A stretch of DNA of 64,000 nt. Origin: Promethearchaeota archaeon (GTDB lineage: Archaea; Asgardarchaeota; Lokiarchaeia; Sigyniarchaeales; SOKP01). Where the stretch lies: assembly GCA_048941015.1 (NCBI GenBank), contig JBHLNZ010000002.1:65964-129963 (forward strand). Direction: 5' to 3'. Below the pieces are notes generated by a model, which ran no database searches, was not told the origin of the DNA, and worked only from the letters and a program-made list of their open reading frames with translations. Positions 62,525 to 64,000 of the stretch are shown piece after piece; position 1 is the first letter of the stretch; each line of letters opens with the position of its first letter. Position numbers and translations under genes: made by a program.

Positions 62525-64000
62525 CACACACTCGCGCTGTTGAGAGCGGCAGGCTAAACAGGTCGCCCGAAAGCTCCCTGCGTACACCCCCACCTCACCA
62601 ACCCCGTCTTCTACGGGTGCGCTCGTCTCGTTCCCACGGTTCGCGTCACCGCGCCCCGCTCTCGATTATCAGCAATCCACCCATTTGAATTATGATGCGT
62701 TTCTATGGTGCGCTTTCACGGACCACTCTGAGTGGCTTCCGGCCATCACAGGTAAGCCTTACCACCCATACACCAACCCAAATACGTACACTGCTCCTAA
62801 TCAATACGGAATAAGATTGGATGACTCTTTTCGGGACCAGCTTCGTGCTTAGATGCTTTCAGCACTTATCCGTTAGCGCGTAGCTGCCCGGCGATGCCCT
62901 GTCGGACAACCGGTACACCAGAGGCGCCGGCAAAATGTTCCTCTCGTACTGATTTTCCCTTTCCCTCAGTCATCCTACATACCTGGTAGATAGAATCCGA
63001 CCTGTCTCACGACGGTCTGAACCCAGCTCACGTTCCCTTTTAATGGGCGAACAGCCCCACCCTTGGAGGTTCTGCACGCGTGCGAACCTGCGCGACGCTA
63101 TGTGCGCCTCCAGGATAGGAAGAGCCGACATCGAGGAAGCAAGCCACGAGGTCGATAGGGACTCTTACTCGTGACAACTCTGTTACCCCCGGGGTAATTT
63201 TTCTATCACCTCAGCAACCCACACGAGGACTGCTAAGGATCGCTAGACCAGGCGTTAGCCTCAGGATTCCTTGGTTGTCAGAATCCAGTCAGGCCAGCTT
63301 GTGCTCTTAAACTCTGCGGCGGATTCCTGACCCGCTTGAGCTGACCATTGGTTTCTCTAGATACCTTTTCTAGAGAGAGCCGCCCCAGCCAAACTGCCCA
63401 CCTGCAGGTGTTCGACGTGGAACGCCGTTAGTGATACCAAGAGGGAAAGTCGGTGTTCCATTGGTGCTCCCCCCTAACCGAGATCAGGGGTTCGATGCTC
63501 CCGACTACACTCTGTATCCAACTCAGAACCACAGCTACAGGCTGCAGTAAAACTCCACGGGGTCTTCTCGTCCCACCAGGTACCTCCGGTCCGTTCGCCG
63601 GAGTGTAATTTCAATCGTCAGAAGGCTGGGACAATAGGGAGAACGTTGGACCATTCATGCACGTCTGAACTTACCAGACAAGGCATTTGGCTACCTTAAG
63701 AGAGTTATAGTTACTCCCGGCGTTTAGCAGGACTTACTCGGGTTGTATCCCGGATTGATCAAACTGCCACTGGCCAGGTTTCAGCTTCTGTAAACACGCT
63801 TTCGCGCTATCAGAAACCTATGTTTTTGTTAAACAGTCGTCCCCCTTTAGTTATTGCAACTTGTGGGCCCCCATACACTGCCGAAGCTGCGTATAGAAAT
63901 CCGCAAGCAAGCCTTATCCCAAAGTTACGGCTCTAATTTGTCGATTTCCCTAGCCTCCTTTACACGAATACGCCTTAGGCTTCTCACCTAGGGGCACCTG
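62525..64000 (-). rRNA. 23S rRNA, 3' part (domains IV-VI); 5' part outside the window; 3' end approximate
   Basis: Reverse complements of GUAACUAUAACUCUCUUAAGGUAGC, CUCGAUGUCGGCUC, GAGCUGGGUUCAGACCGUCGUGAGACAGGUCG, sarcin-ricin AGUACGAGAGGAAC and GCUGAAAGCAUCUAAG. Confidence 0.99.

Follow-up and report, generated by a model that had tools for sequence, protein, structure and literature searches.

The window, by which we mean the whole 64,000-nucleotide (nt) stretch of DNA analysed (G000:C58:65964-129963), belongs to a metagenome-assembled genome of a Promethearchaeota archaeon (G000; 3.59 Mb in 144 contigs, with 95% completeness and 5% contamination) and carries the 3′ part of a 23S rRNA gene on its minus strand. 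This part was aligned by cmscan to positions 1754-2987 of the Rfam model LSU_rRNA_archaea (Table 1), and the contig end falls inside the gene. The 5′ part (model positions 16-1377) is found on contig C10 (G000:C10:2-1432), and model positions 1378-1753 are unassembled, so that the gene is split over two contig ends. A search of the G000 genome found the helix 91 region of 23S in one copy, and the subject of this analysis is an insert of 28 nt in the loop of that helix. Public records with the same insert carry the label Promethearchaeota (Asgard, Loki type). The contigs of several relatives are likewise broken inside 23S, just upstream of helix 91, and in G001 a stretch of N coincides exactly with helix 91.

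An earlier note on this DNA, made from the sequence alone, had stated that the helix 91 stem encloses 37 nt, and both the minus-strand sequence and the covariance-model alignment bear this out. The GGAGG/CCUCC stem encloses 37 nt compared with 8–9 nt in relatives, and helix 91 has 32 nt in the alignment versus 3 in the consensus. The minimum-energy structure calculated by RNAfold (-24.2 kcal/mol; z = -3.0 against dinucleotide shuffles, of which 2 of 200 folded as well) has the bulge-helix-bulge (BHB) form. It is identical to the fold drawn in the earlier note (a 4-base-pair (bp) central helix, two 3-nt bulges, and an inner hairpin), with one refinement, namely an additional A that faces C 63106. 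Specifically, the central helix GCAC/GUGC stands between the bulges AUA and AGA on opposite strands and is flanked by helices on both sides, the 5-bp stem GGAGG/CCUCC outside and GCGU/ACGC plus GCG/CGC inside. The order of outer helix, 4-nt central strand, 3-nt bulge, and inner helix on each strand is the arrangement of tRNA introns at position 37/38. As in short hairpin-type BHB introns of rRNA, the 28 nt contain no open reading frame (ORF) and form a hairpin that maintains the BHB.

With cuts after base 2 of the bulge on each side, 28 nt (63099-63072) would be removed and the 9-nt loop CGCACAUAA left, the predicted junction being GGAGGCGCACAU joined to AACCUCC. With a probability of roughly 0.83, we consider this segment of the minus strand to be a 28-nt ORF-less BHB intron that is spliced out from the helix 91 loop of the sole 23S gene, at about E. 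coli position 2533/2534. The coordinates of its predicted elements are listed in Table 1. A repeated mobile element was ruled out, as the 28-mer and its 21-nt core each occur once in the genome when up to 5 and up to 3 mismatches, respectively, are allowed.

Table 1 Coordinates of the predicted helix 91 intron, its flanking elements, and the associated genes in the window.
Feature	Position	Strand	Basis or remark
Helix 91 stem, 5′ strand GGAGG (outer helix h, exon)	63107-63111	-	5/5 pairs with 63065-63069
Unpaired C	63106	-	Faces A 63070
GCAC, exon side of the 4-bp central helix, contributing to the mature loop CGCACAUAA	63102-63105	-	Fold and homologues
5′ bulge AUA	63099-63101	-	Unpaired in the minimum-energy fold; predicted 5′ cut between U63100 and A63099
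Predicted 28-nt BHB intron AGCGUCGCGCAGGUUCGCACGCGUGCAG	63072-63099	-	Removal gives the insert-free sequence of relatives
Inner hairpin (helix h′), 21 nt, GCGU-C-GCG / loop CAGGUU / CGC-ACGC	63078-63098	-	Minimum-energy fold
GUGC, intron strand of the central helix	63074-63077	-	4/4 pairs with GCAC
3′ bulge AGA	63071-63073	-	Unpaired in the fold; predicted 3′ cut between G63072 and A63071
Unpaired A, facing C 63106	63070	-	Minimum-energy fold
Helix 91 stem, 3′ strand CCUCC (exon)	63065-63069	-	Sequence, fold, and homologues
23S rRNA, 3′ part	62520-64000	-	cmscan, LSU_rRNA_archaea, 1093.5 bits
RtcB RNA ligase gene	4543-5850 (= G000:C58:70506-71813)	+	PF01139, 561.8 bits

The helix 91 region was compared among 13 archaeal sequences from the same GTDB genus as G000. 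One genome with a scaffold gap at helix 91 and one hit representing a bacterial contaminant were kept outside this count; contig C263 of G015 (L018) carries a bacterial-type 23S and is likely a contaminant. An insert of 28-58 nt is present at exactly the same site in seven of the 13, with lengths of 28 nt in G000, 29 nt in G021 and G050, 30 nt in G017, G009, and G008, and 58 nt in G024. The six members without it read GG(G/C)AG-CGCACAUAA-CU(C/G/U)CC. The GTDB family comprises 135 genomes, 40 of which have helix 91 assembled. Aligning helix 91 across related Asgard 23S genes, as the earlier note had suggested, revealed presence and absence at the exact site: the insert was found in 24 of the 40 genomes (six genera) and was lacking in 16 (six genera), two genera being mixed. 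Other families of the order have an ordinary 8-nt helix 91 loop and no insert.

The loop CGCAC(A/C)UAA is carried by each of the 16 family members without an insert and by four metagenome contigs that also lack one, and the insert-free genes of the genus and family match the joined form predicted for the insert-bearing ones, GG(A/G)(G/A)G-CGCACAU-AA-C(C/U)(U/C)CC. In particular, insert-free genes with a GGAGG stem read GGAGGCGCACAUAACCUCC, which is the product predicted for the window, and this product is identical to the sequence of insert-free L065, L066, L069, L071, and G190-G194 (genus g12 and the four metagenome contigs). The four contigs bearing the exact predicted junction were ruled out as spliced transcripts; they are long genomic contigs about 84% identical to the window and represent insert-free relatives. 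The agreement also extends to a loop variant. The inserts of G278 (g23) and G205 (g16) have a 5′ bulge starting with CU instead of AU, which predicts the loop CGCACCUAA, and G279 and G280, which are insert-free g23 genomes, as well as g20 (G211), do have this loop. The 9-nt loop had been described as one base longer than canonical. A 9-nt loop is indeed what the predicted cuts leave; because every insert-free gene of the family carries a loop of that length, however, it is, as judged from these sequences, the normal loop of the whole family and not a scar.

A phylum-wide scan was conducted with the pattern ATCCTGGN{28,58}CCAAGGGT, which is too loose in that most matches outside the family are due to chance or to another 23S region. 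Only matches with the GCGCA signature were counted, so lineages with different flanks would escape, and all of these matches fall in the GTDB family of the window. L045 / G244 (JBHLQA010000164.1, H3M.118), labelled ‘Candidatus Odinarchaeota’, belongs to this family (genus g22) and has a family-type helix 91 intron; the label looks wrong. The sole bacterial match of the helix 91 pattern, L059 (an Actinomycetota metagenome-assembled genome, JBDLVB010000079.1), is a local duplication of CCAAGGGTTGGGCTGTTCGCC... and is probably an assembly artefact at a contig end with no insert. Mapped onto a tree built from the flanking rRNA, the presence and absence of the insert require a minimum of 3 changes on well-supported branches (8 by parsimony); the tree is crude, with about 600 columns and some rows having other flank introns on long branches, and only the minimum of 3 is used.

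Scans of public genomes and metagenomes yielded 28 distinct inserts of 28-58 nt (28-43 nt, plus a single one of 58 nt), whose inner sequences form 15 unrelated clusters. The outer stem is fully paired (5/5) in all 28, with G-C/A-U/G-U covariation at pairs 3 and 4. The unpaired C...A bases are present in every insert, the exon strand is 4 nt and the 5′ bulge 3 nt long, and the 3′ bulge reads A-N-A with an invariant A after it. The exon strand is GCAC in 27 of the 28 (GCAU in one) and in all insert-free relatives, and the intron strand is GUGC or GUGU in 8 and GCGC or GCGU in 20. Exactly 3 nt separate GCAC from the start of the inner helix, and there is no gap between its other end and the central helix. 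Counting the first four pairs of each insert, 106 of 112 are formed in this register compared with 27-61 of 112 in registers that do not represent the same helix, and the mean flush pairing is 6.5 bp versus 0.74 in shuffles. At the first inner-helix pair, U-A, A-U, G-C, and C-G all occur across the homologues.

The variable positions are those predicted to be intronic, i.e. base 3 of the 5′ bulge (A/U), the middle base of the 3′ bulge, and the hairpin. The bulge bases predicted to be exonic stay constant, and bases 1-2 of the 5′ bulge agree with the mature loop in insert-free relatives (AU, or CU where the insert-free loop of the genus has CU). An independent metagenome contig, L072, whose flanks are 97-98% identical to those of the window, has the same insert apart from three substitutions that are neutral for the structure (a hairpin-loop change, G-C to G-U, and U-A to U-G). 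The proposal of a 28-nt BHB micro-intron bounded by cuts at 63072-63099, made in the earlier note, has thus gained support from comparison, as the insert-free genes of the genus and family carry precisely the predicted joined sequence and the geometry is kept in the 28 inserts.

Several observations weigh against this interpretation. The outer bulge consists of AGA plus the extra A opposite the unpaired C, a 1x4 internal loop and not a textbook pure 3-nt bulge. Central pair 3 is an A.C mismatch in 20 of the 28 homologues, the window not being among them. For 14 of these 20 inserts, RNAfold preferred a shifted register with 5-nt bulges, in which G+CGC pairs with GYGC after a two-base shift, and symmetric cuts there would not restore the insert-free loop. 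The covariation, moreover, would be expected of any hairpin inserted in a loop, whether removed or retained. As the register of cutting, the shifted pairing was ruled out, because symmetric cuts would give a 7-nt loop unlike that of any insert-free relative and because the AU/CU bases that it makes intronic are conserved like exon bases. We take the unshifted register to be the one that is cut. Constrained energies calculated for the A.C register were unreliable, as the forced non-canonical pair gave values below the unconstrained minimum.

The genome encodes both a splicing endonuclease and an RNA ligase. One copy of EndA was found, a 205-amino-acid ORF on contig C37 (L062:1210-1824) with catalytic and N-terminal domains (PF01974, 70.6 bits, and PF02778). 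Its size fits the single-subunit type, from which we infer its quaternary form. The RtcB gene (Table 1) lies on the same contig as the intron-bearing 23S gene. ARAGORN called introns of 20-82 nt in 9 of the 25 tRNA genes of the genome, and the splicing pathway is therefore in use. Just 25 tRNA genes were found by this program in a genome that is 95% complete; further tRNAs are probably disrupted beyond detection, hidden by non-canonical introns. Some isotype calls look wrong; for example, ‘Ser-GGA’, with 76 nt after intron removal, is more likely Pro-GGG. The earlier note had also referred to tRNA introns of the same geometry within the window, and this did not hold. ARAGORN with and without intron search and Rfam detected no tRNA intron there; the only tRNA genes, tRNA-Lys(UUU) at 19564-19638 and tRNA-Cys(GCA) at 43330-43403, are of normal length and intron-free.

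In the mechanism that we propose, the exon loop bases GCAC of the precursor rRNA would pair with GUGC at the 3′ end of the intron to form the 4-bp central helix, which would be flanked by the 3-nt bulges AUA and AGA, with the helix 91 stem outside and the small hairpin inside. Single-subunit EndA would cut after the second base of each bulge. RtcB would then join ...GCACAU to AACCUCC..., giving the 9-nt loop typical of the family, and would probably also circularise the 28-mer. That cutting and joining take place in the cell is inferred from the insert, its fold and distribution, the match of the product, the covariation, and the presence of both enzymes.

Instead of being removed, the hairpin might persist in mature 23S rRNA and lengthen helix 91 in a lineage-specific manner, close to the factor-binding centre and the sarcin-ricin loop. 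Expansion segments do cap helices with stable hairpins, and Asgard archaea are known for unusual rRNA expansions (PMC7594248). An expansion segment would be expected to be present and recognisable in close relatives; the helix 91 insert is absent from 6 of the 13 genus members, and among six genus genomes its inner sequence is 43-65% identical in 13 of 15 pairs while the flanking rRNA is 90-99% identical. The two exceptional pairs are G021/G050, with identical inserts (100%), and G017/G009 (83%); between G017 and G021, the flanks are 98.8% and the inserts 65% identical. A control is available in the same gene. The segment at about 63865-63905 on the minus strand (near model position 1855) extends about 25 nt beyond the Rfam consensus, is present in all 7 genus members whose loci reach it with about 90% identity, and by its sequence looks like a genuine retained expansion. 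Relatives with such similar rRNA that either lack the helix 91 insert or have an unalignable inner sequence therefore argue against retention, when the real expansion is ubiquitous and conserved. Conservation at helix 91 concerns the geometry of an endonuclease substrate (3-nt bulges, 4-bp helix, and flush inner helix), whereas the hairpin as such is not conserved. Stacked on H90, helix 91 extends alongside H89 and the sarcin-ricin helix H95 in the direction of the GTPase centre (PMC2952862), and in an E. coli transposon screen the only tolerated insertions recovered in domain V were those in H78 (PMC2441807); retention of an insert at H91 would therefore be unexpected. Neither PMC2441807 nor PMC7594248 reports an expansion segment or a tolerated insertion at H91, and we regard retention as improbable.

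The comparative data bear on removal and not on ligation, and EndA might cut both bulges with the ends left unligated. The mature 23S rRNA would then be nicked in the helix 91 loop, as in bacterial intervening sequences or the helix 98 excision of Pyrococcus. BHB cleavage in mature 23S without rejoining of exons is documented for helix 98 of Pyrococcus furiosus (PMC7758197). At helix 91, the 5-bp stem would hold the exon ends side by side, the arrangement that RtcB joins in tRNAs; RtcB is encoded in the genome, and the remaining bulge bases AU and AA are conserved as if they formed the same continuous 9-nt loop as in insert-free relatives. These points make a nicked loop decidedly improbable. 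An assembly error or a pseudogene copy is hardly credible. The fragmented state of this genome, its 5% contamination, and the division of the 23S gene between contigs would allow for such an artefact; against it, L072 carries the same insert with changes that leave the structure intact, a further 27 distinct sequences from many assemblies have homologous inserts, the genome has no second copy of the region, and outside the insert the gene fits the archaeal model with 1093 bits. Taken together, there is a small chance that the hairpin is either retained beside the sarcin-ricin loop or cut out without rejoining, leaving a nick in 23S at the factor-binding centre. In both cases the ribosome would have an architecture that has been described in no domain of life.

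Further inserts were observed near helix 91 and elsewhere in the 23S genes of relatives. L072 has a 773-nt BHB intron (L072:4316-5090) at GUGAG/ACAG (about E. coli 2599/2600), 67 nt downstream of its helix 91 intron, with a 213-amino-acid LAGLIDADG_3 ORF; the corresponding site of the window (63005/63006) is empty. This intron could be a mover of the mini-intron by co-conversion, by analogy with S1205/S1213 of Pyrobaculum. In G046 (L036, same genus, minus strand), the helix 91 intron is missing, but the H89 loop region, at the equivalent of window 63157-63171, contains an insert of 34 nt. Its sequence, GAGUCC-CUA-AAUCU...AGAUU-GGAU-AAA-UCGACC, fits a BHB, and cuts after bulge base 2 would restore GAGUCCCUAUCGACC as in the window; the genus would therefore have a second mini-intron site. 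L067, L066, and L071 have inserts of 30-52 nt where introns classically occur in domain IV (UUAAGG, near E. coli 1927; window position about 63696), and none is present there in the window.

The spliced intron that we favour would extend rRNA BHB introns to a tiny ORF-less form at one helix 91 site in about 60% of the family genomes in which the region is assembled. No general concept is changed unless the RNA is retained or left unjoined. For annotation and phylogeny, the insert should be removed before rRNA alignment, and the rRNA genes that contain it are frequently interrupted in assemblies of these genomes. As regards ribosome biogenesis, these archaea should need EndA and RtcB to mature the H89-H92 block of the large subunit. 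The 28 variants amount to a natural mutagenesis series of a BHB substrate, including a majority class with the A.C mismatch and an alternative register, and could serve as a probe of the tolerance of Asgard single-subunit endonucleases. How introns lacking a homing endonuclease can spread or persist is a further question posed by the insert, and co-conversion with the neighbouring LAGLIDADG intron of a near-identical relative is a candidate route.

Protein-spliced (BHB) rRNA introns are textbook features of Thermoproteota. A literature search, including the text of Penev et al. (2020; PMC7594248), found no published report of a helix 91 intron or of Asgard 23S mini-introns, and the insert appears to be an element of a known kind, located at a site and in a group of archaea for which no report of it was found. 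Like the Asgard expansion segments ES9 and ES39 (Penev et al., 2020; PMC7594248), it is extra rRNA sequence in an Asgard large-subunit gene. Those segments are large, retained, surface-located, and at known expansion sites, whereas the helix 91 insert is a tiny, rapidly evolving, BHB-shaped element that some species have and others lack. It shares with the excision of helix 98 in Pyrococcus and Thermococcus, which gives circularly permuted rRNA, a BHB inside mature 23S and the tRNA splicing machinery (PMC7758197; bioRxiv 10.64898/2026.03.23.713588). The cut ends at helix 98 stay open and the natural ends are joined, while at helix 91 the conserved 9-nt loop argues for rejoining.

Classical 23S BHB introns with LAGLIDADG homing endonucleases (Desulfurococcus, Pyrobaculum, and Aeropyrum; PMC4496867, PMC6125680) have the same splicing signal and prefer critical sites in domains IV/V. 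They comprise hundreds of nucleotides and their own mobility gene; the helix 91 insert, in contrast, has 28 nt, no coding capacity, and a single occurrence in the genome. Archaeal tRNA introns (hBHBh′, 37/38) resemble it in the outer helix, the 4-bp helix between exon loop and intron 3′ end, the 3-nt bulges cut after base 2, the inner helix, and a similar size, and differ in that the helix 91 insert has an rRNA host, an extra A opposite C at the outer bulge, and a central A.C mismatch in most homologues. Short (<50 nt) ORF-less hairpin-forming BHB introns are known in 16S rRNA genes of Thermoproteales and Desulfurococcales (Jay & Inskeep, 2015; PMC4496867). As in those 16S introns, the element is ORF-less and shorter than 50 nt, combines a hairpin with a BHB, occupies a conserved rRNA site with patchy distribution, and presumably relies on the endonuclease and RtcB. 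It differs in lying in a 23S gene, in the helix 91 loop near E. coli 2533/2534, and in a Lokiarchaeial Asgard family and not in Thermoproteota. A hairpin intron of Pyrobaculum was co-converted with a homing-endonuclease intron 8 nt away (PMC4496867), whereas in the window the helix 91 intron stands without such a neighbour.

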